Origin: Candidatus Micrarchaeia archaeon
GTDB lineage: Archaea > Micrarchaeota > Micrarchaeia > Burarchaeales > JACRGF01
Reading direction: 5' to 3'
DNA: 11,596 nt
NCBI GenBank assembly: GCA_038870455.1
Contig: JAWCPB010000013.1
Coordinates: 1-11,596 of the forward strand
A program made the translations under genes and the position numbers. This document shows, one piece after another, positions 1 to 11,596 of this stretch (positions within the stretch are counted from its first letter, which is position 1; every line of letters starts with the position of its first letter). The notes beneath the pieces are model-generated. The model was not told where the DNA came from, made no database searches, and was given only the letters and a program-made list of their open reading frames with translations.

Positions 1-529
1 CATCCAGCTTTTCGAATTTGTTCAGCTCAGCGAGCGCCTCCGCCGCAAACCTCCCCCCATCAACCAGATTGTCGACTGCAATCAGAAACGCATTGAAAGA
101 TTCTGGAGTCATATTCTCTCTTTTTTTTAGGAGAATCGTAAATTCGTCCAATGCATCTTTTGCATTTGGCAGCCAGCTAACTTTGACCAGAGTGAGGACG
201 TGGTGTTTGTGGGTAAACGGATCTTTCAGCATTTCTCCTATCACGCCATGGTTTACTAAGTGGTCGAGATATGATGTTTTAAGGAGCTCTTTCAGGAATG
301 GAATGAAAGGCTTTGGCACCTTTCCTAAGCGCATGCAACAGGCGATAAGGAACTGATATGCTTCAGGACGAAACTCAAAGTATTTCCTGGAATCCTCGTC
401 AGCCTTCTTCAATGCTTCGTCGGCCAGCTTCTTTGCCTTGCTCATCCGCTCTTGAATGTATCCTCGCAATGATAATCCTCGCAATGATAATCCAACAGGC
501 TCCAATCTGGATGCGGGGTAAGTTTGCAT
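1..529 (-). CDS. Hypothetical helical protein, 3' end truncated by the window edge
   Basis: Manual translation from ATG at 529 gives an open frame of 176 codons to the edge (MQTYPASRLEPVGLSLRGLSLRGYIQERMSKAKKLADEALKK...ELNKFEKLD). A TATA-like TTTTAAAA lies about 30 nt upstream. No recognisable motif. Confidence 0.8.
   Translation of the reverse strand, partial: MQTYPASRLEPVGLSLRGLSLRGYIQERMSKAKKLADEALKKADEDSRKYFEFRPEAYQFLIACCMRLGKVPKPFIPFLKELLKTSYLDHLVNHGVIGEMLKDPFTHKHHVLTLVKVSWLPNAKDALDEFTILLKKRENMTPESFNAFLIAVDNLVDGGRFAAEALAELNKFEKLD
460..493. repeat. Perfect 15-bp tandem duplication (ATCCTCGCAATGATA x2 plus ATCC)
   Basis: Read directly from the sequence. It is in frame and encodes GLSLR-GLSLR-G in the minus-strand ORF. 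Confidence 0.95.
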
Positions 530-552
530 CAACCAAATAATGTGCAAAAGCG

Positions 553-561
553 TTTTAAAAA
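553..561 (-). promoter_or_regulatory. Archaeal TATA box for the ORF starting at 529 (leaderless transcript)
   Basis: TTTTTAAAA on the minus strand, overlapping the DUF2085 stop codon. The TTTA starts 30 nt upstream of the ATG. Confidence 0.6.
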
Positions 562-1151
562 GCTAAGCGCGTTTCAAGTATTGATTGCCAGATTTGGTTG
601 AGTATCGGAATGATGTAAAGCGGCATGACAACGCCGATGAGCCCGCCCGTCAGCAGCCTCAGCGCGTTTGTGCTCTCCCTCAGCCCGAGGAACTGCGTCA
701 CGCCGTCCACTGCAATCGGAACCATCGCAGCCACAAGCAACCACTTGTTCGGCCATTTTCTCCCAGCCGCTCCGACAACAAGCGGCGCGGCCAGCCCGCC
801 CAACAGCATGCCGAAGAATATCGCCGTGTCCCTCGCGCACATCCCAAACTTGAATCCATGCCCCTGCGCGTTCCACACTTCAACCTGCTTTGAGTAGCTC
901 AGCGTGCCGTTCTGCGGCATGCAGTCGCCAACATGGTAGCCGCCATTGGCATACAGGCACAGCGAGCGCGAGGTCAGCTGATGGCACTGCGCGGCAAAGA
1001 AATCGTAGAGCAGGGGCGCGAGCGTGCTCTTCTGGCTCGCGAGCAGAGGCGCGAGGAGAATGAGCGCGCAGTAGAGCGCGAGCGCAATCATGTAGAGCGC
1101 ATAAGGGAGATAGCGAAGGACGTCGCGTGTTTTCAGTGGCTTACCTCGCAT
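555..1151 (-). CDS. DUF2085-family membrane protein
   Basis: Several hydrophobic helices plus family motifs CHQxxxRS, CARDxAIFFG, P(I)AVDGVTQ and RESTNALRLLTG. Confidence 0.85.
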   Translation of the reverse strand: MRGKPLKTRDVLRYLPYALYMIALALYCALILLAPLLASQKSTLAPLLYDFFAAQCHQLTSRSLCLYANGGYHVGDCMPQNGTLSYSKQVEVWNAQGHGFKFGMCARDTAIFFGMLLGGLAAPLVVGAAGRKWPNKWLLVAAMVPIAVDGVTQFLGLRESTNALRLLTGGLIGVVMPLYIIPILNQIWQSILETRLAF

Positions 1152-2026
1152 GTCATTCCCGTTCCTCTGATGTGCTTCTGCTTAGGCGTCTCGAACTGGA
1201 ATGCGGTGTGGCTTATGTTGTGTTTCCTGAGCCCTGCGGCAATCTTTTCCCCAATCGTGTGCGTGCTGCTCACGCGCCTGTCCCGCACCACGACGTGTGC
1301 AGTGACGTAGATGATGTCGCTGCAGATCGCCCAAACGTGCACGTCGTGCGCGCCCAGCACGCCGGGCACGCTCGTTATCGCCTTGCACACGCTCTCCGCG
1401 GTTATGCCGTACGGCGAGAACTCGAACAGTATGGACAGCGACGTTCTGGCAATGCGGTAGGCGGAGAAGAGGATGATGCCCGCGATGACGAGGCTCACGA
1501 GCGGGTCGAAAAGCGGCTGTCCTGTCAGCGCGATGAGCGCGCCCGCAACAACCACCCCGACGCTTGACAGCGCGTCCCCCAGCGCATGGAGAAGCGCAGC
1601 CCGTACATTCAGGTTGGCGTGCCTCCTCAGCCTCCACACGACAAAGGCGTTTGCGGCGAGGCCCGCCAACCCAATCCCAAACACCCCCGCAGCATTGACT
1701 TCCTGCGAGAAGGCGAGCCTGTTGAACGCCTCAAACACCACGAAAACCGTTATGACCACGAGCAGCGCGGCGTTGGCGAGCGCAGCCAGCACTTCCCCTC
1801 TGTGATAGCCGAAAGTCCTCCTGATCGTAGAAGGCTTCTGGGCGAGCTTGAACGCGATGAAGGCGAGCGCAATGGAGAGAAGGTCGCCGAAGACATGGCC
1901 CGCGTCGCTGAGCAGGGCCAGCGAGTTGCTCCACACCCCGCCCGCAACCTCCGCGGCGAACGTCACGAGCGTGATTGCGAGAACAGCCTTCAGCTCCTCC
2001 CCGACACTCCTGTGTTTTGCGGCCAT
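1133..2026 (-). CDS. czcD: Cation diffusion facilitator (CzcD/ZitB-like Zn/Co/Cd efflux) transporter
   Basis: SLALLSDAGHVFGD (TM2 HxxxD), TFGYHRGEVLAAL, LHALGD (TM5 HxxxD), and C-terminal HDVHVW / TAHVVV / HTAFQFE. Confidence 0.92.
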   Translation of the reverse strand: MAAKHRSVGEELKAVLAITLVTFAAEVAGGVWSNSLALLSDAGHVFGDLLSIALAFIAFKLAQKPSTIRRTFGYHRGEVLAALANAALLVVITVFVVFEAFNRLAFSQEVNAAGVFGIGLAGLAANAFVVWRLRRHANLNVRAALLHALGDALSSVGVVVAGALIALTGQPLFDPLVSLVIAGIILFSAYRIARTSLSILFEFSPYGITAESVCKAITSVPGVLGAHDVHVWAICSDIIYVTAHVVVRDRRVSSTHTIGEKIAAGLRKHNISHTAFQFETPKQKHIRGTGMTCEVSH

Positions 2027-2044
2027 GATTGGCTATGCGCCTTG

Positions 2045-2059
2045 TTTTATTAATTATTT
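2045..2059. promoter_or_regulatory. AT-rich bidirectional TATA region between czcD and folD
   Basis: TTTTATTAATTATTT sits in the middle of a 51-nt divergent spacer, about 27-32 nt from both ATGs. Confidence 0.6.
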
Positions 2060-2077
2060 GCACTAAACTCTTACGCC

Positions 2078-2914
2078 ATGCCCGCGAAACTCATTGACGG
2101 CAAGGCTGTTTCTGAAAAGGTTTTGCAAGAAGTCGCCACAGACATCAAGCGCAGCAACCTGCACCTCAAGCTCGTCTTCGTCCTCGTTGGCGACGACCCG
2201 GCCTCCCAGGTTTATGTCCGCAACAAGGAAAGGGCGTGCGGCCGGGTGGGCATCGAGAGCGTGGTGAAGCGCCTGCCGGCCTCCACGAGCGAGCACGAGT
2301 TGCTCTCTCTGATAGCCTCGCTCAACGGCGACCCCACCGTCACGGGCGTCATCGTACAGTCCCCCCTTCCGGGCCACATCGACGAGTCCAAAATCATCGA
2401 ATCAATTTCCCCCCTTAAAGACGTGGATGGCTTTCACCCGCTCAACATGGGCGCGCTCGTGGCAGGCAAGCCAGGGCTGTGGCCCTCCACGCCCAGCGGC
2501 ATACTGCGCCTGCTCGACGAGTATGGAATAGACCCGGCTGGCAAGCACGCTGTCATCGTGGGCAGGAGCTACATCGTTGGCAAGCCCTTCGCTCTCCTGC
2601 TGCTCAACAGAAATGCGACCGTCACAGTCTGCCACTCCCGCACAAAAAATTTGGCAGAGCACACGAGGAGCGCGGACATTCTTGTCGTCGCGGTCGGCAA
2701 ACCAAAACTAATCACCGCAGACATGGTCAAGCCCGGCGCGGTCGTCATCGACGTGGGGATAAACCGGGTTGAGGGGAAGATAGTTGGCGACGTTGATTTT
2801 AGGGAAGTCAGCGAGGTTGCGGCGCTCATCACCCCTGTCCCCGGCGGCGTGGGTCCCATGACTGTCGCCATGCTCATGAAGAACACGCTCATCGCGGCAG
2901 GCCTTCAAAAGTGA
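2078..2914 (+). CDS. folD: Bifunctional methylenetetrahydrofolate dehydrogenase/cyclohydrolase
   Basis: [19 protein letters not shown] (YxxxK), [43 protein letters not shown]. Confidence 0.97.
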
Positions 2915-2918
2915 TCCA

Positions 2919-4181
2919 GTGAGCTATGCACAGCTTCTGCGTTTCCTAAAGCGGCGCAGGAAGATGAAGGAGAAATGGGACTTGAAGAACATCCAGAGGC
3001 TTCTCTTTCTCCTCGGCAACCCACAGGACAATTTCAAGACCATCAATGTTGGAGGCTCGAACGGCAAGGGCTCGGTCACCGCAATGATCGCCGCCTGCCT
3101 CGCCGAAGCCGGCCACCGCACGGGTTCCTATTACTCGCCTCACGTCGATGGATTTCGCGAGAGGATTCAGGTCGATGGGAAAAAAATTTCCAAGCGTGAT
3201 GCCGCCGCTGCTTTCGCCGCCGTCCGCCCGCTTGTGCCTTCCTTCGCCAGCGATCCCCTGAGCTTCTTTGAAGTGGTCACAGCGATGGCCCTCCTTCATT
3301 TCTCACACAAGAAAGTCGATTATGCTGTGCTCGAGGCCGGCCTGGGCGGCCGTCTTGATGCCACCAACATCGGCAGACAGTCGGCATGCGTTATCACAAA
3401 CGTTTCCCTTGAGCACACCCAGATGCTCGGAAACACAATAGCCAGCATCGCAAGGGAAAAAGCCGCCCTCCTGCATCGAAACTCCGCCCTCTTCACGCTC
3501 GAAAAAAACCCTTCTGCTCTCTCCGCCCTCCGTGCGGCATGCGGCAGGACAGGCTCAAAACTTTTTCTCGTAAATCCGGAAATAGAGGACAACAGCAGGA
3601 GCTTTTTTTCCCCGCATTATGCAATCTCAACCTCCCGTACAACCTACAAAATTTCCCCGCATCTTCTCGGCGCTCACCAGGCGTACAACGCCGCGCTCGC
3701 AATCGCCGTGTGCGAGCATCTCGGCCTGTCGAAGAGGGCGATTGAGCGGGGCATCAACAACGCATTTGTTCCCGCTCGCATTGAGGTCATGCGCAAAAGG
3801 CCCCTCATCCTCCACGACTGCGCGCACAACCCCGCTGCCGCGGGCGTTCTCGCCGGCGCCGTCAAGCAGATACCGCACGAAAAATGCATCACCCTGCTTG
3901 GCGTGATGGCCGACAAGGATGCTGAGGGCGTGCTGCGCGCGCTCGCTCCAGTCACTGACGTTTTTGTCTGCAACCAGCCCAGCGTTGAGAGGGCGATGAA
4001 CGCAAACGTGCTCGCCGGCATTGCCCGCAAACTCAAGCCAACCCACATAGTCCGCGATGTTCGTTCTTCCATGCGGAAAGCGCTTTCTCTCGCGGACAAA
4101 AACGATTTAATCCTCTGCACGGGCTCCATCTACATGCTGGGCGAGCTCAGGGGCAAAAACGACTTGCCGGTGGCGCAGTGA
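2919..4181 (+). CDS. folC: Folylpolyglutamate synthase / dihydrofolate synthase
   Basis: GSNGKGS P-loop, SPH..FRERI, SFFEVVT, EAGLGGRLDATN, EH..MLGNT...IAREKA, DCAHNP, TGSIY. GTG start assumed. Confidence 0.95.
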   Translation: MSYAQLLRFLKRRRKMKEKWDLKNIQRLLFLLGNPQDNFKTINVGGSNGKGSVTAMIAACLAEAGHRTGSYYSPHVDGFRERIQVDGKKISKRDAAAAFAAVRPLVPSFASDPLSFFEVVTAMALLHFSHKKVDYAVLEAGLGGRLDATNIGRQSACVITNVSLEHTQMLGNTIASIAREKAALLHRNSALFTLEKNPSALSALRAACGRTGSKLFLVNPEIEDNSRSFFSPHYAISTSRTTYKISPHLLGAHQAYNAALAIAVCEHLGLSKRAIERGINNAFVPARIEVMRKRPLILHDCAHNPAAAGVLAGAVKQIPHEKCITLLGVMADKDAEGVLRALAPVTDVFVCNQPSVERAMNANVLAGIARKLKPTHIVRDVRSSMRKALSLADKNDLILCTGSIYMLGELRGKNDLPVAQ

Positions 4182-4741
4182 AGAAAAAACTCAGGCAGAT
4201 AATGCTCGAAAAGAGGAACGCGCTTTCGGAAGCCGAGCGCACCGAGAAGTCGGAAAGGATAATCGCAACGCTTTTCTCTCTTCCGGAATTCCGGGCCGCC
4301 CACGCCATCCTCTTCTACGCGAGCATCAAAAGCGAGGTGCAAACCCACAGGGCGATAGCGCGGGCACTCGCCCTTGGAAAAAGAGTATGCCTTCCGCGCG
4401 TGAACAGGGAAAAAAGGGAGCTTGAGCTCTATGAGGTAAGGAGTATGGGCGAGCTGAAGCCAGGCGTGTTCGGCATCCTCGAGCCCGTCCCGGAAAAGAG
4501 CGTGCGCGTCCAGCCCGGCGCGCTCGAGCTCGTCGTTGTTCCGGGCGTTGCTTTTACGGAGAAAGGCTGCCGCCTCGGCTATGGGATGAGGTACTACGAC
4601 GGGCTGCTCAAGCAGGTGAAATGCCCCGCCATAGCGCTCGCCTTCGAGCTCCAAATCATCCCGGCAATCCCAACCGAATCGCATGACGTGGATGTGCATA
4701 AGATAGTCACCGAAGAGCGGCTCATCGAGTGCAGAAAGTAG
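4178..4741 (+). CDS. ygfA: 5-formyltetrahydrofolate cyclo-ligase
   Basis: KKKLRQ..LEKR, SEVQT, FGILEP, VVPGVAF...GCRLGYG.. YYD, HDVDV..IVTE. GTGA start/stop overlap with folC. Confidence 0.93.
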   Translation: MKKKLRQIMLEKRNALSEAERTEKSERIIATLFSLPEFRAAHAILFYASIKSEVQTHRAIARALALGKRVCLPRVNREKRELELYEVRSMGELKPGVFGILEPVPEKSVRVQPGALELVVVPGVAFTEKGCRLGYGMRYYDGLLKQVKCPAIALAFELQIIPAIPTESHDVDVHKIVTEERLIECRK

Positions 4742-4771
4742 GTTTTTATTCCCCCCCGCCCTTTTCCAATC

Positions 4772-5392
4772 ATGCCGCCCATCCGCGTGGCCGTGCTCGC
4801 CTCAGGAAGGGGAAGCGACTTCCAGAGCATCATCGATGGCGTCGAGAAAGGCGAGGTGAATGCCGAGATCGTCGCGCTCATCACCGACAACCCCGCGGCC
4901 ATGGCCGTAGAGAGAGCCAGGAAACACGGCATTCCTTACTACATCATCCAGCCTAAGGACTTTCCAACAAGGGAACAGCACGACCACGCAATTCACCTCA
5001 AACTGGATGAGCTGCGGGTTGATCTGGTCGTGCTCGCGGGCTACATGCGGCTCATCAAGGACAGAGCTCTCCTAGAGGCATACGCGGGCAGGATGATCAA
5101 CATCCACCCCTCGCTGCTGCCAGCGTTTCCCGGCGCGCACGCCCAGCGGGACGCGTTCGCCGCGGGCGTGAAGGTCAGCGGCTACACGATTCATTTTGTC
5201 GATGCCTCGCTTGATGGCGGGCCGATCATCTGGCAGGAGGCCGTTGACGTCAGCGAGTGCAAGAGCGCGGATGAGGTCGCCGCAAAAATACTGGCGAGAG
5301 AGCACGTCGGCCTGCCAAAAGTGGTCGATCTTTTCGGTAGAGGACGGTTTGAAATAAAAGGAAGGCGGGTTGAGTTCATTCCCAACCCATGA
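4772..5392 (+). CDS. purN: Phosphoribosylglycinamide formyltransferase (10-formyl-THF dependent)
   Basis: VLASGRGSD, LAGYMR, INIHPSLLPAFPG (catalytic N/H), HFVDASLDGGPII (catalytic D). Confidence 0.96.
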   Translation: MPPIRVAVLASGRGSDFQSIIDGVEKGEVNAEIVALITDNPAAMAVERARKHGIPYYIIQPKDFPTREQHDHAIHLKLDELRVDLVVLAGYMRLIKDRALLEAYAGRMINIHPSLLPAFPGAHAQRDAFAAGVKVSGYTIHFVDASLDGGPIIWQEAVDVSECKSADEVAAKILAREHVGLPKVVDLFGRGRFEIKGRRVEFIPNP

Positions 5393-5398
5393 GCACGC

Positions 5399-6634
5399 TC
5401 ATTTCGTCGCGATGACCATTCCCGCAGGCTTTCTGAAGACATTCCCGACCTTCACGCCGAGAAGCACTTTCGTGCCCCTGCTCTCGGCGAGGTCGACGAG
5501 CCTCTGCGTGATTATGCCGTCGAAGACGATGGCGTGCGGCGCCTCGCCCTCGCTGAGTGCCTTGATGAGGTCCCGCACTGGCACCTCGCTCTTCAGGTTG
5601 CCCGCCTCGTCGTACAGCCTCGCGCGCAGCGTGTTCTCGAGCTCTCCCAGCGAGGCGAGAAGCTGTGGCGGAACTGCGGCCGCCGGCGCAGGAGCGGGCG
5701 CTGGCGCCGGCGATGGAGTTTCAGGAGGCAGGGCCGCGGCGTGCGGCCTTCTCGCCTCCTCCCTTGCAGCTTCCCTCGCGGCCTCCCTGTCCGCTCTCCT
5801 TCGCGCGGTGAGCCCCTCGATCTGGTCGATGGGCACGCGCGCCCGCAGCGCCTTGATGATCTCTTTCCTCGCCAGCTCCTCCACTTCCTTTCCGGGCGGC
5901 GCTCTGGCGACGAAGTCTATGTCAGTCGCCTGCGCGAGCTCCCGCAGGATGATGTCGCCCCCCCTGTCACCGTCCAGGAACGCGGTGACTTCTTTTTCCG
6001 CGCACAGCGCGGCCAGCGACTTGGGCACGTTCGCCCCGCCCACCGCGATGACGTTGTTCACGTCGTTCTTGAGCAGGTTGAGCACGTCCGCCCTCCCCTC
6101 GACTATCACCAGCGAGTCGTAGCTGGTTATGTTGGGCCCGCACGGAAGCTTCTCGGGCCCGTACTCCGCTATCTCCGCAACTTTCACCTCTGCCCTGACG
6201 AGCTCGCTGAGCTCCTTGCTCTCTGGAATCTCGTGGGTGAGCAGGTTTTTGAGCAGGGCCTTGGCCCTGTCCACGACCGCCTTGCGTTTTGTGTTGCGCG
6301 TGTCCTCAATCTTCTCGACAGAAATTCTGGCATCGCACGGCCCCACCCTATCCACAGTCTCGAGCGCTGCTGCGAGGATGCTCGTCTCGACCATGTCGAG
6401 CGAAGAGGGCAGCGTGAGCTTTCCGACGCTTTTTCCTCCCCTCACCTGCAGGTCGACCTCAATCCTGCCGATTCTGCCGTTCTTCTGCAGCTCCCGCAGG
6501 TCGAGCTCGTCTCCGAGCAAGCCCTCGGTCTGCCCGAACACCGCCCCGACTACATCGGGCTTTTCGACAAGCCCGCCTATCTCGATGTTCGCATACACCA
6601 TGTACTTCACCGTATCCACGTACGTCTTCGCCAT
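5399..6634 (-). CDS. dnaG: Archaeal DnaG (Toprim primase-like, exosome-associated protein)
   Basis: GLVEKPDVVGAVFGQTEGLLG.ELDLRELQKNGRIGRI, ETVDRVGPC, Toprim motifs IVEGRADV and FLDGDRGG, C-terminal FDGIITQRLVD. SD-like GGGTGA upstream. Confidence 0.96.
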   Translation of the reverse strand: MAKTYVDTVKYMVYANIEIGGLVEKPDVVGAVFGQTEGLLGDELDLRELQKNGRIGRIEVDLQVRGGKSVGKLTLPSSLDMVETSILAAALETVDRVGPCDARISVEKIEDTRNTKRKAVVDRAKALLKNLLTHEIPESKELSELVRAEVKVAEIAEYGPEKLPCGPNITSYDSLVIVEGRADVLNLLKNDVNNVIAVGGANVPKSLAALCAEKEVTAFLDGDRGGDIILRELAQATDIDFVARAPPGKEVEELARKEIIKALRARVPIDQIEGLTARRRADREAAREAAREEARRPHAAALPPETPSPAPAPAPAPAAAVPPQLLASLGELENTLRARLYDEAGNLKSEVPVRDLIKALSEGEAPHAIVFDGIITQRLVDLAESRGTKVLLGVKVGNVFRKPAGMVIATK

Positions 6635-7051
6635 TCACATCACCCGAACGCTTAGTTCAACCTTTTTCTCCATGCATTCCTTCCTGAGCTCCTCAAGGCG
6701 CCTCGCGGCGTCCTCTATGAAGCTTATTCCGAGCGCGTACCTGAGCGCCCTCCTCGCCTCGAGGTCGGCCCGCACCCCGTGGGCGGCGAGCGCTTCCTCG
6801 AGCGCCCTCGCCTTCTCCTCGCCTCTCCTGTCGAAGTCGGTGAGCACGAACGCCTTTTCTTCGCCTGCCACGCGGGCGGCGACCTCGTCCGCGCTCTGGT
6901 TGCAGAGTACGAACCTCGCGGCCACAATCCGCTCGAGCGCTGCCCTGTCCCTCGCTCCCTCGACTATGACCGCGCGGCCCTTCATCTCGGCAAGCGCGCG
7001 CTCAAGGCGCTTTGTCTTGGCCCGCAGTTCCCAGTCGCTGTTCGAGCTCAT
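6635..7051 (-). CDS. Small Toprim-domain protein (RNase M5-like family)
   Basis: VIVEGARD..AL and LTDFDRRGE Toprim motifs; abuts dnaG. Start uncertain: ATG 7051 preferred, ATG 6985 is an alternative. Confidence 0.85.
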   Translation of the reverse strand: MSSNSDWELRAKTKRLERALAEMKGRAVIVEGARDRAALERIVAARFVLCNQSADEVAARVAGEEKAFVLTDFDRRGEEKARALEEALAAHGVRADLEARRALRYALGISFIEDAARRLEELRKECMEKKVELSVRVM

Positions 7052-7265
7052 CAGCACCGATCTCCACAGCGAGGATTTTCCTCCTGCTTCCGAATCCACG
7101 GACGATGCGCACCCCGCACCCGAGAAGCCGCGAGAGCTTCTTGATGAGTTCGGCGTTTGCCCTGCCCCTCTCCGCGCTCTCGGTCACATTAACCGCGAGG
7201 CCCCTCGCGGCCCGTCGGACCCTGAATTCCCTGGAATTCGGGGTCACCGTGACTTCCAGCTCCAT
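7002..7265 (-). CDS. DUF167 / UPF0235 (YggU-like) protein
   Basis: VTVTPNS...V.VTESAERGRANAELIK.LS...V.IVRG..SRRK pattern, 87 aa. SD-like GGAGG / AAGGAG upstream. Confidence 0.9.
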   Translation of the reverse strand: MELEVTVTPNSREFRVRRAARGLAVNVTESAERGRANAELIKKLSRLLGCGVRIVRGFGSRRKILAVEIGADELEQRLGTAGQDKAP

Positions 7266-7306
7266 GCTCCTTCTTTTCCTCCAGCTGATGACAGAATGAG
7301 CGGGAG

Positions 7307-7375
7307 AAGTGTGCTGTGCAATGTTGACTGTTGTTCATCGATCGGCTGATGCTCCCACAGCCATCCTTGCACAGC
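7307..7375 (-). ncRNA. Putative structured small RNA; best fit is a single-hairpin archaeal H/ACA guide RNA
   Basis: 9-bp basal stem GCUGUGCAA/UUGCACAGC followed directly by ACA+CUU, a 6x6-nt internal pocket, an upper stem capped by a GGA/GAA K-turn-like motif, and a TATA box 31 nt upstream. Confidence 0.6.
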
Positions 7376-7398
7376 GCTGTCTATTATGCATTCGCTCC

Positions 7399-7406
7399 TT
7401 TTTAAA
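7399..7406 (-). promoter_or_regulatory. TATA box upstream of the putative sRNA and the DUF167-Toprim-dnaG unit
   Basis: TTTAAAAA just after the CBS gene stop. The spacing seen at other promoters here predicts a start at about 7375-7377. Confidence 0.65.
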
Positions 7407-7408
7407 GC

Positions 7409-7957
7409 CTATACCTCCTCGGCTTCCCTGCACTCGTCGCACAGCAGCCGGCCCCTCTCGGCCCGCAGCGTCTCGCTGTACAGCCCGCAGTTGTCGCACG
7501 CGCCCGTGTAGAACGTCGTTTTCTCGAACTCCCTTATTCTCGCGGCCTCCTTGACTATGTCGAGGTAGCCCGGGTATATGCGGAGGAAGTCGTCCTCGGT
7601 GATTATCCCCACTAGCTTTCCCTCGTCATTCACCACGGGCAGCCTCTTTATCCTGTGGGCCTTGAGCAGCAGCGCGGCTTCGTTCAGCGGCTCGCTGGCC
7701 TTCACCACCTTCAGCGGAGCGCCCATGATCTTTCCGACCTTCACTGCCTTGGCGTCCTTCCCTTCCGCCACGACCTTGAAAGCGATGTCGCGCTCGGTGA
7801 CTATCCCCACTGCCTTGCCCTCCTCCAGCACGACGATGGAGCCCACGTTGTTTTTCTTCATGAGCCTGGCCGCCTGCGCGGCGGAGTCGCTGGCCTTGAG
7901 GGCGACCACGCCCTTGGTCATGACGTCTCCCACTCGAATGTCTGTCTCGAGCTTCAT
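7409..7957 (-). CDS. CBS-domain pair protein with C-terminal Cys4 zinc ribbon
   Basis: Two CBS repeats (V.DVMT...VGIVTERDI; IM..P...IKRLPVV...LVGIITEDD) plus CDNC...CDEC. ATG 7957 preferred over TTG 7960 from TATA spacing. Confidence 0.9.
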   Translation of the reverse strand: MKLETDIRVGDVMTKGVVALKASDSAAQAARLMKKNNVGSIVVLEEGKAVGIVTERDIAFKVVAEGKDAKAVKVGKIMGAPLKVVKASEPLNEAALLLKAHRIKRLPVVNDEGKLVGIITEDDFLRIYPGYLDIVKEAARIREFEKTTFYTGACDNCGLYSETLRAERGRLLCDECREAEEV

Positions 7958-7980
7958 CAATGCAAGATTGTACGTAAGAG

Positions 7981-7989
7981 TTTAAAATT
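7981..7989. promoter_or_regulatory. Shared bidirectional TATA box (CBS gene / hjc)
   Basis: TTTAAAATT lies 31 nt before the hjc ATG (8012) and about 29-30 nt before the CBS ATG (7957) on the opposite strand. Confidence 0.65.
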
Positions 7990-8011
7990 GCTTGCTGTCA
8001 CTTTGCTCTCC

Positions 8012-8401
8012 ATGGCTTTCGGCAGTTACAGAAAGGGTGCGCGTGCTGAGCGAGAGCTTGTTTCCTTCTTCGACAGCAGGGGCTATTGCGTGATGAGAGC
8101 GGCGGGCTCCGGAGTCTCCTCTCTTTCCCCAGATCTGCTTGCCTTCAAGCGCGGCGAGCAACTCGCGGTCGAGTGCAAGTCCGTCAATGCCGACCGCCTG
8201 TCCATCGAGCGCGGGCAGTTCCTCGGCCTGAAGAAATGGGAGGACAACACGGGCATCGACGTGTATGTTGCGTGGCGCCTTCCGAAGGCTGGCTTCCGCT
8301 TCGCCCGCCTAGCCGAATTCGAGGAAGCGGGCAGCTCGTTCTCCATCTCTCGCGCGCGCATGCTTCTGCTGGACAGAAAGCCCGAGGATTTGGTGAAGTG
8401 A
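8012..8401 (+). CDS. hjc: Archaeal Holliday junction resolvase Hjc
   Basis: YRKGARAERELV..F...GY.VMRAAGSG, PDLLA, AVECKS (PD-(D/E)xK). Real start is ATG 8012, not 7655 as in the ORF track. Confidence 0.93.
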   Translation: MAFGSYRKGARAERELVSFFDSRGYCVMRAAGSGVSSLSPDLLAFKRGEQLAVECKSVNADRLSIERGQFLGLKKWEDNTGIDVYVAWRLPKAGFRFARLAEFEEAGSSFSISRARMLLLDRKPEDLVK

Positions 8402-9406
8402 ATGGTGCTGTGCGTCAGGGTGAAGCGGCAGGAGGCCGAGAGCGCGAGGAGGAAGCTCGAGGCCGAGGGAGTTCTCGACAACAGGTTTGCCCCCTCACGC
8501 GATGAGCATTTCGTTTTCTTTCCTGTCCTGCGCGTGCCCGAGGGCTTTGAGGCCGCCGAACTGCCCATGCCCGAGAGAAAGCCGAGGCAGCGCCCGCTCG
8601 ACAAGCTGCTTTCCCCTTCTCTCGCCAGAAAAGTCCCGCACTCTTATGATATAATAGGCGACATAGCAGTTCTCGAAATACCGCCCAAACTCGCCTCCCG
8701 CGCTAAAACCGTCGCAGAAGCCCTCCTGTCCTCCAATCCACACCTCCGCCTTGTCTTGAAGAAAGCGAGCGTCAGGAAGGGGGTCTTCAGGGTGAGGGAA
8801 TTGAAGGCGCTTGCGGGAAAAGGCTCCACCGAAACGATTCACAACGAGTACGGCATGCGCTTCAAGCTCGATGTCGCCAAGGCATTTTTTTCTCCCAGGC
8901 TCGCGAGCGAGAGACAGCGAGTGGCGAGCCAAGTTTCTCCGGGGGAGCGCGTGCTTGTGCTCTTCGCCGGCGTGGGCCCTTTTGCCATCGCCATCGCAAG
9001 GCGCGTGCCGAGCGCGAGCGTGGCCGGCGTGGAGCTCAACCCCACTGCCTGTGATTATTTCAAGCAGAACATTCGCCTCAACAAGTGCTGGAACGCCGAA
9101 GCCGTGTGCGGCGACGTAAAGGAAGTTGTTCCGGCCCGCTTCGCCTCGTGGGCCGACCGCGTGCTGCTCCCCCTCCCCAAGGGAGCCGGGGCTTTCCTCG
9201 GCGAGGCTTTTCTCGCGGCGAAGCCCGGCGGCATCATCCACTTCTATTCCTTTGCAAGAGAGGAAGAGCCTTTTGCAGCTGCAGAGCGCGTCATCGAACA
9301 GGCTGCTTCTTCAGCAGGCAGGCGCGTTGCCTTCCTCAACAGGAAAATGCTTCTTCCTTACGCACCACGCGTTGTGCAGGTGTGCGTTGATTTCAGAATC
9401 AGTTAA
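8402..9406 (+). CDS. trm5: tRNA (guanine-37-N1) methyltransferase, Trm5 family (Trm5a/Taw22-like signatures)
   Basis: N-terminal D1 domain, SYDIIGDIAV, G.FRVR.L..LAG, ETIH.EYG, FFSPRL.SER, FAGVGPF, ELNP, N..LNK, DRVLLPLPK. Confidence 0.9.
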   Translation: MVLCVRVKRQEAESARRKLEAEGVLDNRFAPSRDEHFVFFPVLRVPEGFEAAELPMPERKPRQRPLDKLLSPSLARKVPHSYDIIGDIAVLEIPPKLASRAKTVAEALLSSNPHLRLVLKKASVRKGVFRVRELKALAGKGSTETIHNEYGMRFKLDVAKAFFSPRLASERQRVASQVSPGERVLVLFAGVGPFAIAIARRVPSASVAGVELNPTACDYFKQNIRLNKCWNAEAVCGDVKEVVPARFASWADRVLLPLPKGAGAFLGEAFLAAKPGGIIHFYSFAREEEPFAAAERVIEQAASSAGRRVAFLNRKMLLPYAPRVVQVCVDFRIS

Positions 9407-9852
9407 GCGAGCTCGCTTTCCCCCCTGCCAAGCTCCCTGGCTTTCCTGCCGAACTCTTCGACGAGCGCCCTGTAGGCGACCTCCTTGCTCCTCAGGCTCT
9501 CTTTTCCCCCGTAAATTTTGTCCACGCGGGCAACCGCGTCATCGCGCTCCTGCCTCAGCAGGTTCCATATTCTCTCGATGGCTTTCGCCAGCCTCGTCTG
9601 GCCGAGCTCGTCCTGCCTCTGCAGGTCTGTCTCGAGCTCGCCCGCCTTCGCCTTGTAGGCTTTCTCTATTTCTGCAAGCGCCCAATTCTTGAGGCGCGTG
9701 TCTGTGATGAAGGCCAGCACTGGCTTTGCCTTTTCCTTCAGGAATGCGGTTATTCTCTCGCTGAGCGGGACGAGTTTGACGAGCTTCCCCGCCTCCTCCA
9801 CCCCTTTCCTCGCCGCCCTTTCCGCAGCCGTTTCCTCAGCCAGCCTCGCCAT
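9403..9852 (-). CDS. Hypothetical charged, coiled-coil-like protein
   Basis: E/K/R/A/L-rich helical ORF filling the trm5-scpA gap, with TTTATATA upstream at 9891-9884. ATG 9852 preferred over TTG 9864. Confidence 0.75.
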   Translation of the reverse strand: MARLAEETAAERAARKGVEEAGKLVKLVPLSERITAFLKEKAKPVLAFITDTRLKNWALAEIEKAYKAKAGELETDLQRQDELGQTRLAKAIERIWNLLRQERDDAVARVDKIYGGKESLRSKEVAYRALVEEFGRKARELGRGESELA

Positions 9853-9883
9853 GCCACTCGCCAAGACAATTCGCTTCCCTCTC

Positions 9884-9900
9884 TATATAAAGATTTATAT
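9884..9900. promoter_or_regulatory. Back-to-back TATA boxes (hypothetical gene on -, scpA on +)
   Basis: TTTATATA on the minus strand (9891-9884) and TTTATAT on the plus strand (9894-9900, 31 nt before the scpA ATG). Confidence 0.65.
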
Positions 9901-9924
9901 TCCTCCGTGGGATGATTTTCTCAC

Positions 9925-10665
9925 ATGCCCGGAGAGCCTTCGGCCGCAGCGACCTCGGCCGAGAACTTTGATCTGGAGCGCTTGGTGGCGCAGCCCACGT
10001 GGCGCGAGGTGCTCCTCGACCTAGTTGTCAAGGAGCAGCTTGACCCATGGAACATAGACCTCGCGCTCATCTCCGACAAGTACCTTCAGCGCTTGAGGGG
10101 CATGCAGCTGCTCGATCTCCGCATTCCGGCCAACATCATTCTCGCCGCGGCCATTCTCCTGCGCTTCAAGGGCGAGGCGCTGCGTCTCAAGGAAGAGGAG
10201 CAGGTTGCCGAGCCCGAAACTTTCATCGAGGGCGAGTCTTCGCTTGAGATTCCCATGCTTTCCCTGCGCGCGCGCATTCCGCCCAAGAGGCGCGTGACGC
10301 TGCCCGAGCTCATCGCCGCGCTCGAGAGCGTGCTCGAACGCCAGAGGGCGAAAGAGAAAGCGCCGCTCATCTCCCCGGCAGAGCCGCTTGTGATCGAGCT
10401 GCCTCAGCAGAACCTCGAGCAGCAGATGTCGGACATACTCAAGAGGCTGGGCGAGCTGGCGGACGCGGAGAATGTTGTCGCCTTCTCGGCTCTCCTGCAC
10501 GAGCGCACTCCCCTCGAGATAATAAACACGCTCATCCCGCTCCTCCACCTTTCCCAAGAGGGCAGGGTCTCTCTCGTCCAGGAGCCGCTTTTCTCCGAGA
10601 TTTTCATTCACGTGCTGAGTGGGGAACATGGAAGAAAAGCAAGAGGGAAAAGAGTCGCGGGCTGA
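9925..10665 (+). CDS. scpA: Segregation and condensation protein A (kleisin subunit of the SMC complex)
   Basis: LLDLV....LDPWNIDL..I.DKYL, ILAAAILLR.K.E.L, RRVTL.ELI.AL, and C-terminal winged helix LLHL...GRV.L.QE.LFSEI.I. Confidence 0.92.
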   Translation: MPGEPSAAATSAENFDLERLVAQPTWREVLLDLVVKEQLDPWNIDLALISDKYLQRLRGMQLLDLRIPANIILAAAILLRFKGEALRLKEEEQVAEPETFIEGESSLEIPMLSLRARIPPKRRVTLPELIAALESVLERQRAKEKAPLISPAEPLVIELPQQNLEQQMSDILKRLGELADAENVVAFSALLHERTPLEIINTLIPLLHLSQEGRVSLVQEPLFSEIFIHVLSGEHGRKARGKRVAG

Positions 10666-11179
10666 GTCGGCACCAGAGAGCGAGCTGCTGTTTCTCGACG
10701 TGCCGGAAGAGCCGGAGAGGAAGGAAGAGCCCTCCCCCCTCCGCGTCATCGAGGCGGCACTCTTTCAGTCCTCCAAGCCCCTGCGGCTCGAGGACTTCGC
10801 GCGCATCACCGGCATAGCCGCGCCGGGCAGCCTCGAGGAGCTTCTCAAACAGCTTCAGGCAGAGTACGACCAGCGCGGCTCGCCCATTCAAATTGTCTGT
10901 GAGAACAATTTGTGGGTCATGCGCCTGCGCGCGCCCTACGCTCAGAAGGTCGCAGAGTTCGCGAAAGAAGCCGAAGTCTCCAAAGGCGGCCTGCGCCTGC
11001 TCGCCTTCGTCTCGCGGAACGAGGGAGTCACGCAGGCAAAGGCCGTGAAGGTGCTCGGCAGCACCGTGTACGATTACGTGAACGAGCTCGTGGAGAGCGG
11101 CTTCATCACCGCGGAGAAGAATGGTCGCACACGCGCGCTCAAGACGACCCAGAAGTTCAAGGACTATTTCTCTGGATGA
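10628..11179 (+). CDS. scpB: Segregation and condensation protein B (kite subunit)
   Basis: IEAALF.S.KPL, L...Y......I.I, LS-like ..LRLLAFV, TQ..AVK..GS..Y.YV.ELVE.GFI, GRTR.L.TT.KF.DYF. ATG 10628 follows a G-rich SD-like site. Confidence 0.92.
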   Translation: MEEKQEGKESRAESAPESELLFLDVPEEPERKEEPSPLRVIEAALFQSSKPLRLEDFARITGIAAPGSLEELLKQLQAEYDQRGSPIQIVCENNLWVMRLRAPYAQKVAEFAKEAEVSKGGLRLLAFVSRNEGVTQAKAVKVLGSTVYDYVNELVESGFITAEKNGRTRALKTTQKFKDYFSG

Positions 11180-11258
11180 CCATCCGCTTGGCTTGTAGTA
11201 ATCCGCCAGATGCTCGGAAGATGGGCTTTCCTGGGAAACAAAGTGTTTCCTCACAAGG

Positions 11259-11265
11259 TTTATAG
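11259..11265 (+). promoter_or_regulatory. Candidate TATA box with flanking inverted repeats
   Basis: TTTATAG in otherwise GC-rich DNA, preceded by the palindrome GGAAACA-AAG-TGTTTCC (11234-11250). Confidence 0.4.
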
Positions 11266-11473
11266 CCTGATTGAGGAATTGTGTGCATAGCGGTTGAAAA
11301 GCCCCGCGAGGGGAAGAAGGCTCCTGTGCCAGGGCTTTTGGAGAAAGAGCCGAAGCAGCGCTTTACGCCTCGTGCGCGAAAGAGAATGTGGGTAGGTGCT
11401 TGGAAAGCGCCGCCAAGGACATGCCGCCAGAAATGAAGCAGCGGGCAGCGCGCACTGGCTCTAATGTGGTTCT

Positions 11474-11580
11474 GGCGCGGGGAAGGTGAAGCGAGAACGT
11501 GGTGCCGGCTCCAGAAGCCGAATGCACGGTAATGCTGCCGCTGTGCTGTTCGATCACGAGCCTGCCACGTGCAGGCCGCC
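11474..11580 (-). pseudogene. Frameshifted C-terminal fragment of a sensor histidine kinase (HATPase_c end)
   Basis: Restoring one base near 11564 gives GGLHVARLVIEQHSGSITVHSASGAGTTFSLHLP, which resembles the GLGL.IV..IVE.HGG.I.V.S..G.GTTF...LP consensus. Confidence 0.55.
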
Positions 11581-11596
11581 TGCGGGCCGTTCATCT

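Follow-up and report, generated by a model that had tools for sequence, protein, structure and literature searches.

Box H/ACA guides are hard to detect by sequence, and descriptions of them are, to our knowledge, limited to a small number of cultivated archaea. The closest described systems are the single-hairpin small RNAs (sRNAs) Pab21, Pab91, Pab160/Pf9 and Pab19 of Pyrococcus. According to the parts of PMC2377435 that deal with guide architecture, these consist of one hairpin with a lower stem of ~9 base pairs (bp), a two-stranded pocket, and an upper helix which is 5-6 bp long, contains no more than a single bulge and lies beside the tandem G.A pairs of a kink-turn (K-turn) or K-loop. 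An ACA follows the lower stem at a distance of 14-15 nucleotides (nt) from the target, an unpaired UN in the ribosomal RNA (rRNA). All of these traits recur in a conserved RNA hairpin which we analysed in a stretch of 11,596 nt, called the window throughout, from Candidatus Micrarchaeia archaeon (assembly GCA_038870455.1, contig JAWCPB010000013.1, positions 1 to 11,596). The hairpin spans positions 7375-7310 of the minus strand, between a gene for a CBS-domain protein and a gene of the DUF167 family. It is, with good confidence, the gene of a single-hairpin box H/ACA-type guide sRNA of ~66-70 nt. The source genome comprises 1.04 Mb in 51 contigs, is 90% complete and has a G+C content of 60%.

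Compared to the Pyrococcus sRNAs, differences were also obvious. The RNA of the window has no detectable sequence or Rfam relationship to them, and its guide duplexes are shorter (4+5 bp). The Micrarchaeota family is single-copy, confined to records with Micrarchaeota titles, and many of its members are without an ACA. The sites of P. abyssi exclude the A loop of the large-subunit (LSU) rRNA, the site proposed below, as judged by an offset that was worked out from the text of PMC2377435.

The 3' hairpin of yeast snR10, as presented in the relevant part of PMC2879522, has the same target nucleotide as predicted here, the U after the G that pairs with the A-site tRNA in the helix-92 loop, which is conserved universally, and follows the same H/ACA pocket pairing model. 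However, snR10 is a two-hairpin eukaryotic small nucleolar RNA (snoRNA) with an H box, without a K-turn, and with a 5' hairpin that has a separate processing role. The likeness is one of target and pairing model alone, and no common descent is claimed. The H/ACA RNA sR-h45 of Haloferax volcanii (PMC7075261) is also an archaeal guide and acts on the peptidyl-transferase region of 23S rRNA, but has two hairpins and the targets 1940, 1942 and 2605 in H. volcanii numbering. Finally, archaeal mRNA leaders which bind L7Ae (PMC6298567) carry a K-turn hairpin at the 5' end upstream of protein genes, as does the locus described here. Judging by the abstract of that paper, in contrast, a pocket, an ACA ruler and complementarity to rRNA are all absent from them.

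Conservation and Distribution of the Hairpin RNA

The hairpin is a real, conserved RNA gene. Using a 121-nt query, it was found in 21 genomes of the same order with 76-94% identity (E values of 1e-8 to 1e-48), whereas the DUF167 protein encoded next door reached only 41-62% identity. In the order-level alignment A1, which holds 24 copies, 91.9% of the cells pair and compensatory changes were observed for 10 of the 17 pairs; none of 500 shuffles reached the observed values. Sliding the partner columns by 1-3 positions let the pairing fall to 24-39%. For the lower stem (H1), 99.1% of the cells of the 24 homologs pair, with 4 pairs showing compensatory changes (7 of the 9 pairs at the class level), and 4 of the 5 tested pairs of the upper helix (H2) covary in A1. 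Compensatory changes were found for 14/17 pairs in the class-level alignment, which was fitted to the covariance model and includes five spurious rows from the opposite strand. As the element is conserved, its hairpin is far beyond chance.

The sequences GGAUGGC and GUCAACA, the K-turn signature and the ACA are invariant in all 24 order-level copies, and the stems vary. GGAUGGC was present in 59/59 class-level homologs. GUCAACA was found in 16/16 order-level rows of the class-level alignment A2 and in 35 of its 42 rows from outside the order. Varying stems combined with fixed loop strands and K-turn are the pattern expected of a guide. The spacer between the CBS and DUF167 genes of the relatives holds the same hairpin with covarying stems and, within the order, with invariant loop strands, K-turn and ACA. 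This favours the interpretation given in an earlier note on the window, made from the sequence alone, which had named this comparison as a check.

A covariance model (R1), built from the 24-copy alignment, detected one copy each in 27 of 28 relatives from the same order. In 151 genomes sampled from the class it gave a match in 75, the window genome included, and one genome contained two copies. An exact-motif scan of one genome per species (185,579 species) yielded 79 matches, 33 of which were confirmed by the covariance model. The titles of these 33 records were Candidatus Micrarchaeota/Micrarchaeia, Burarchaeum, Norongarragalinales, 'ainarchaeum' and uncultured archaeon; none of the 46 bacterial motif matches passed the model.

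Rfam 15 placed no family over the window at its gathering thresholds. At E <= 10 on positions 7200-7480 only two noise matches were obtained, both outside the hairpin. The RNA thus belongs to no described family of Rfam, and the earlier note was right in its expectation that standard annotation misses it. No paper connecting Micrarchaeota with such a guide was found; the papers naming both 'Micrarchaeota' and 'pseudouridine' are, by title and abstract, on other subjects. Since Rfam is blind to the RNA, it is unannotated across a class of small-genome (DPANN) archaea. If the assignment is true, the covariance model adds one RNA gene to the annotation of roughly half of the Micrarchaeia sampled. 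Our own H/ACA descriptor, applied to the window genome, recovered the hairpin RNA together with 17 other candidates. These were rejected: 16 fall within open frames encoding 144 amino acids or more, and the last has a weak stem and is located at a contig end.

Architecture of the RNA

The 69-nt RNA folds with -29.8 kcal/mol compared to a mean of -17.2 (standard deviation 2.84) for shuffled sequences (z = -4.44), and 0/200 shuffles matched this value. The opposite strand and the entire spacer fold less remarkably. The features of the hairpin are listed in Table 1, and all sequence features and coordinates that had been noted earlier for the minus-strand element were found to be present.

For Pyrococcus abyssi, rules were derived from 15 functional interactions (Muller et al., 2008, PMC2377435). 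In the relevant parts of that paper H2 is 5 or 6 bp long (6 in most cases) and carries a single bulge at most, the distance between an ANA and the target U is 14 or 15 nt, and the 3' guide interaction is weightier than the 5' one. The search descriptor used there asks for an H1 of at least 7 bp and for loop strands of 5-11 nt. A K-turn 5-6 nt above the pocket is given for archaeal H/ACA guides in the corresponding section of a review (PMC7991803). The window RNA has an H1 of 9 bp, an H2 of 6 bp with one bulge, loop strands of 5 nt and an ACA at 14 nt. These four rulers agree together when the pair G7361.U7327 closes H2; otherwise the loop strands are 6+6. In the 6x6 drawing of the earlier note the loop strands were GGAUGG (7366-7361) and UCAACA (7327-7322), with the ACA at 15 nt. 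The pair G7361.U7327 is invariant and predicted by RNAalifold, and closing it extends H2 to 6 bp and leaves a 5x5 pocket. Hence, the 9-bp stem, the ACA and the 5-bp upper stem with its bulge stood as drawn, and the pocket was refined to 5x5 with a ruler of 14 nt. The ACA was present in 24/24 copies of A1 and in three further copies from the order, and stood at 14 nt in 16/16 order-level rows of A2. Within its order the RNA fits the definition of an archaeal single-hairpin box H/ACA guide.

The K-turn is described here in the usual nomenclature of strands and positions (n/b, L1-L3). Its tandem G.A/A.G pairs, the G-C pair at -1 and the U at L3 are invariant in 24/24 copies, and A(3b) is conserved in at least 90%. 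Register and orientation were correct as proposed earlier. It follows from the strand register that the pocket-side upper helix is the non-canonical stem and the apical stem the canonical one (C-stem). The second pair of the apical stem (28-42 of the order-level alignment) varies between A-U, U-G, C-G and U-A across the homologs.

Some class-level homologs (G088, G145, G103, G033) carry apical insertions, which extend the RNA to ~100-120 nt. They keep the lower stem, the pocket and the flanks of the K-turn.

Complementarity to the A Loop of the LSU rRNA

As the rRNA genes are unassembled in the window genome, the rRNA operons of five relatives (G001 from the same genus, G002, G008, G013 and G019) were scanned for targets. 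With the pair G7361.U7327 closing H2, a site in the A loop, GG-GUUG-UU-CAUCC-AUUAAAG, offers 4+5 Watson-Crick pairs around an unpaired UU and was found in all five operons. In four of them no other site reaches 8 contiguous pairs. The intron-rich operon of G002, the fifth, gave two additional matches, both with G.U pairs. Alignment to the annotated E. coli 23S rRNA placed the loop at U2552-C2556 in helix 92, the A loop, and the first unpaired U at U2554. G2553 of E. coli presumably corresponds to G2922 of yeast. In yeast the nucleotide that pairs with the A-site tRNA is Gm2922, and the next one is Psi2923 (relevant passage of PMC9851907), the pseudouridine made by snR10 according to the section on it in PMC2879522. 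In a run of unpaired uridines the most 5' one is reported to be converted (Majumder et al., 2020, PMC7075261). On these grounds U2554 appears to be the target, an assignment which we make with moderate confidence. If true, a pseudouridine is predicted at a central ribosomal site, in the A loop beside the G that pairs with the A-site tRNA.

For the transcript ends, the protein binding and the modification itself, we infer the following course. The RNA would be transcribed from its own TATA box, with a start at or near G7375. L7Ae would bind the K-turn above the 6-bp upper helix, and Cbf5-Nop10 the 9-bp lower stem and the ACA. The pocket strands would then pair with the A loop (helix 92) of the LSU pre-rRNA, CAAC with GUUG as 3' guide and GGAUG with CAUCC as 5' guide. 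This would leave the UU unpaired and bring its first U, the counterpart of U2554 in E. coli and of U2923 in yeast 25S rRNA, into the active site of Cbf5 for conversion into pseudouridine.

The A-loop sequence GGGUUGUUCAUCC is common to the class, which would explain why the guide strands are invariant. In family f14 an A to G change in the 3' guide meets an unchanged A loop, so that a wobble pair results. Family f12 has an altered A-loop stem, and no RNA was detectable there even at E <= 5. As a side observation, an A replaces the U at E. coli position 2555 in a subset of the class (G082, G085, G100, G109, G118, G121, G127, G133). The position is normally conserved, and its variation coincides with the very base that would stay unpaired in the proposed guide-target duplex.

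For the 6x6 register, the LSU and small-subunit (SSU) rRNA loci of the five relatives contained no conserved site, whether up to 2 mismatches were tolerated or 8 or more contiguous pairs were demanded. Its only match, a weak 5+3 pairing at the universal 5' end of the 16S rRNA, was judged to be due to chance. In 29 whole genomes the counts of the 6+6 target pattern resembled those of a reversed-pattern control. In the uS7 gene of genus g17 a stretch around a GAU codon matches the 6+6 pocket with 12 perfect bp, which was rejected as a coincidence of codon choice. The uS7 gene of the window genome itself has three mismatches at that site, and the one-mismatch match of this genome lies in a different gene. 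A UGUUGA in the L1-stalk region was dismissed as it is unconserved among the relatives. Among 11 tRNAs found by ARAGORN in the window genome, intron-bearing tRNAs left out, no site with at least 7 pairs was observed.

The rRNA genes of the five relatives are oversized. SSU matches span 2018-4492 bases compared to a model of 1478 positions, and LSU matches up to 4889, which suggests large insertions or introns.

Co-occurrence with Cbf5

The TruB_N domain was found in 112 of the 151 class genomes and in 74/74 of the relatives bearing the RNA; the two genome lists were compared by eye. The families f13 (0/21), f17 (0/13) and f23 (0/1) have neither TruB_N nor the RNA. These 35 genomes, mostly 92-97% complete, are kin, so that their number may reflect very few loss events. 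The joint absence suggests that the whole H/ACA system, and with it the Psi55 of tRNA made by Cbf5, was lost in part of the class. If the RNA is a guide, the families without Cbf5 and RNA are natural negative controls. Together with the conservation, the covariation, the rulers and the rRNA match, the co-occurrence with Cbf5 supports the pseudouridylation guide that the earlier note had suspected here.

In many relatives the TruB_N match of Cbf5 comes in two pieces (profile positions 1-57 and 70-149) in one frame, e.g. at G001:C6:73955-74296. The catalytic domain may thus contain a segment that is divergent or was inserted.

Evidence Against a Guide and Alternative Explanations

A number of observations weigh against a guide RNA or against its proposed target. 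With the rRNAs of the same genus, shuffled guides reached a 4+5 site in 93/5000 cases when G.U pairs were allowed and in 11/5000 with Watson-Crick pairs only; since the 6x6 register had given nothing first and about three registers were tried, the A-loop register being found on the second attempt, these figures have to be multiplied by about three, which brings chance to roughly 0.7-6%. The 3' guide duplex of only 4 bp is at the short end of the workable range. In the P. abyssi work one case with a 4-bp 3' guide, two of its pairs being G.U, was inactive (respective part of PMC2377435). Guide and target are both invariant, and no compensatory change between them was found. The pocket strands are partly self-complementary, and the minimum free energy (MFE) and the RNAalifold structures close the pocket. 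This may result from the guide having to pair with both strands of an rRNA hairpin stem. The MFE fold pairs CAUC with GAUG instead, which would compete with the K-turn. The C-stem of the window copy has a single standard pair (G7352-C7340), and judged by its bases the element resembles a K-loop.

Outside the order an ACA stands at the ruler position in only 9 of 42 rows of the class-level alignment, and any ANA in 15 of 42. Several of the other homologs have UCA or CCA, others nothing similar. G002, a member of the same family as the window genome, has UCA in place of ACA. It is chiefly in this loss of the ACA that homologs from beyond the order depart from the definition of the RNA family. 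The loss weighs less because a single-hairpin guide is reported to dispense with its ACA when pairing is typical (PMC7075261). If the RNA is a guide throughout, its ACA-less members probe the need for an ACA in vivo.

Some eukaryotic H/ACA snoRNAs act in processing. On this model the RNA could belong to an H/ACA-type ribonucleoprotein (RNP) with another target, or be a non-catalytic assembly chaperone which holds helix 92 or other rRNA open, a possibility that we regard as unlikely. The evidence from the architecture is identical for this explanation, and the short 3' guide duplex and the lack of an ACA in most class-level homologs fit it as well. Furthermore, the 5' strand with its neighbours (AAGGAUGGC) also complements a conserved GCCAUCCUU elsewhere in the LSU rRNA. 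However, this GCCAUCC site was rejected as a target since it has neither a positioned U nor a nearby partner for the 3' strand, and the whole-genome search for the 6+6 target stayed at the level of chance. The A-loop site, in contrast, shows the correct UN geometry and the rulers, and coincides with a known pseudouridylation site.

A further explanation gives up the H/ACA assignment altogether. The RNA would then be a rod-like K-turn hairpin, binding L7Ae and another protein, and its likeness to H/ACA RNAs would be coincidental. Indeed, a closed helix containing G.A and A.A mismatches is one way to draw the 'pocket', much of the class does without the ACA, and Rfam gave no match. Nevertheless, four independent H/ACA rulers would have to agree at once by accident, the unique rRNA complement lies at a known pseudouridine site, and the RNA never occurs in genomes without Cbf5, the gapped window assembly aside. 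We consider such a coincidence very improbable.

With regard to the partner proteins, the genome of the window encodes Nop10 and two L7Ae-family proteins, as expected for a guide of the proposed type. The third protein, Cbf5, was not found in the assembly by searches with TruB_N, a CBF5 model and TruB_C_2. In a genome of the same genus cbf5 lies 20 kb from the RNA. When its region G001:C6:68000-80000 was compared with the window assembly, contig C39 was found to end (base 19) just before cbf5, and C13, the contig holding the window, to end (base 28162) just past cbf5 in the layout of the same-genus genome. The ~3 kb with cbf5 are without counterpart in the window assembly and fall exactly between the two contig ends. 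The missing Cbf5 is therefore an assembly gap beside the contig of the window.

The distribution in two other families speaks against the guide reading. In f12 Cbf5 was present in 8/9 genomes and the RNA in 0/9, and a relaxed search of these genomes yielded noise only. In f15 the counts were 14/15 and 1/15, and the f15 genomes examined carry the same A loop. Finally, Gar1 (PF04410) was not found in the window genome, and among the 151 class genomes none exceeded the cut-off and 7 gave weak matches, with a model that misses one of four archaeal controls (Sulfolobus). Gar1 is either very divergent or lost in the class.

Locus and Neighbouring Genes

Table 1. Positions of the hairpin elements, putative signals and neighbouring genes in the window.
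Feature	Position	Strand	Remarks
CBS-domain gene	7409..7960	minus	upstream of the RNA; stop TAG 7411-7409; Pfam PF00571, E = 3.6e-32
TATA-like box TTTAAAAA	7399..7406	minus	31 nt before the first stem base G7375
Second A/T-rich element AUAAUA	7382..7387	minus	~10 nt upstream of the stem; putative proximal promoter element
Lower stem H1, 5' strand GCUGUGCAA	7367..7375	minus	9 bp with 7313-7321; G7375 is the predicted RNA 5' end
5' guide strand GGAUG	7362..7366	minus	complement of CAUCC in the rRNA A loop (3' side)
Upper helix H2, 5' strand G-CUGUG	7356..7361	minus	G7361 pairs with U7327
K-turn, non-bulged strand	7352..7355	minus	G7355 (3n), G7354 (2n), A7353 (1n), G7352 (-1n)
Apical C-stem and loop	7341..7351	minus	weak in the window copy; 2-4 bp in relatives
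K-turn, bulged strand	7334..7340	minus	C7340 (-1b), G7339 A7338 U7337 (L1-L3), G7336 (1b), A7335 (2b), A7334 (3b)
Upper helix H2, 3' strand CAACAG-U	7327..7333	minus	a single A, at 7331 or 7332, is bulged
3' guide strand CAAC(A)	7322..7326	minus	CAAC complements GUUG in the rRNA A loop (5' side)
Lower stem H1, 3' strand UUGCACAGC	7313..7321	minus	pairs with 7375-7367
ACA box	7310..7312	minus	directly after H1; 14 nt from the 3' base of the H2-closing pair
Pyrimidine-rich motif CUCCCGCUCAUUCUGU	7291..7306	minus	downstream of the ACA; aligned in most same-order homologs
DUF167 (YggU family) gene	7002..7265	minus	immediately downstream of the RNA; Pfam PF02594, E = 1.5e-13

The DUF167 start codon lies 44 nt past the ACA of the hairpin RNA. 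Beyond DUF167 follow a small open reading frame and a gene for a Toprim-domain protein (dnaG in the earlier note), all on the minus strand. Among the 41 genomes with DUF167 loci that were collected, 22 have both the RNA and DUF167. In 19 of these 22 the two are same-strand neighbours with the RNA immediately upstream, and three of the 19 belong to other families. Where DUF167 is absent, a gene for a small Toprim protein follows the RNA instead. In the families f12, f15 and f18 the regions upstream of DUF167 are without a hairpin of the H/ACA-like kind.

The linkage could indicate a cis-acting 5' leader, a K-turn hairpin which binds L7Ae and regulates the downstream DUF167, small Toprim protein and DnaG, with no free sRNA being formed. 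L7Ae is reported to regulate translation via K-turns in 5' leaders (abstract of PMC6298567). No TATA-like box was seen in the window from the hairpin to the ATG of DUF167, and the constant position upstream of DUF167, or of the small Toprim protein, is in agreement with a leader. However, a leader leaves unexplained the invariant loop strands complementary to the A loop, the ACA at an exact ruler distance across the order, and the joint absence with cbf5. Moreover, the RNA and DUF167 lie on separate contigs in G009, G014 and G020. A leader without guide function is therefore quite unlikely, and the two roles are mutually compatible. Because of the missing TATA-like box and the linkage to DUF167, an sRNA with guide function may be processed from the 5' end of a longer transcript. 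The adjacency itself may reflect a functional connection, or else no more than the use of the sRNA promoter by DUF167. If the RNA is a guide, it gives a first hint at the function of the DUF167 gene that accompanies it.

We also considered a more far-reaching reading which joins these results. Here, one lineage-wide guide of the Micrarchaeota would be devoted to the A-loop uridine, for which eukaryotes employ snoRNAs of the snR10 type, and guided modification at this site would be an archaeal trait predating the eukaryotes. The RNP would be minimised by nature, in most lineages of the class without ACA and apparently without a recognisable Gar1, and DUF167 would be marked as a new partner of this RNP or of LSU maturation by a conserved co-transcription of the RNA with DUF167, the small Toprim protein and DnaG. 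As a whole this reading is tentative and rather doubtful.

Concerning the putative promoter, an A/T-rich octamer occupies the aligned position of the TATA-like box in 24/24 homologs. Other genes of the window have A/T-rich boxes 28-33 nt ahead of their start codons, so that the similarity in spacing between the RNA and the protein genes, to which attention had been drawn before, holds roughly. The second A/T-rich element is possibly a proximal promoter element. In many homologs the A/T-richest 8-mer lies 8-13 nt ahead of the stem, and most homologs have such a second element at this distance from the RNA start. The pyrimidine-rich motif downstream of the ACA may serve in termination or processing, or may be a leader belonging to the next gene. 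A motif similar to it also occurs where DUF167 is absent.

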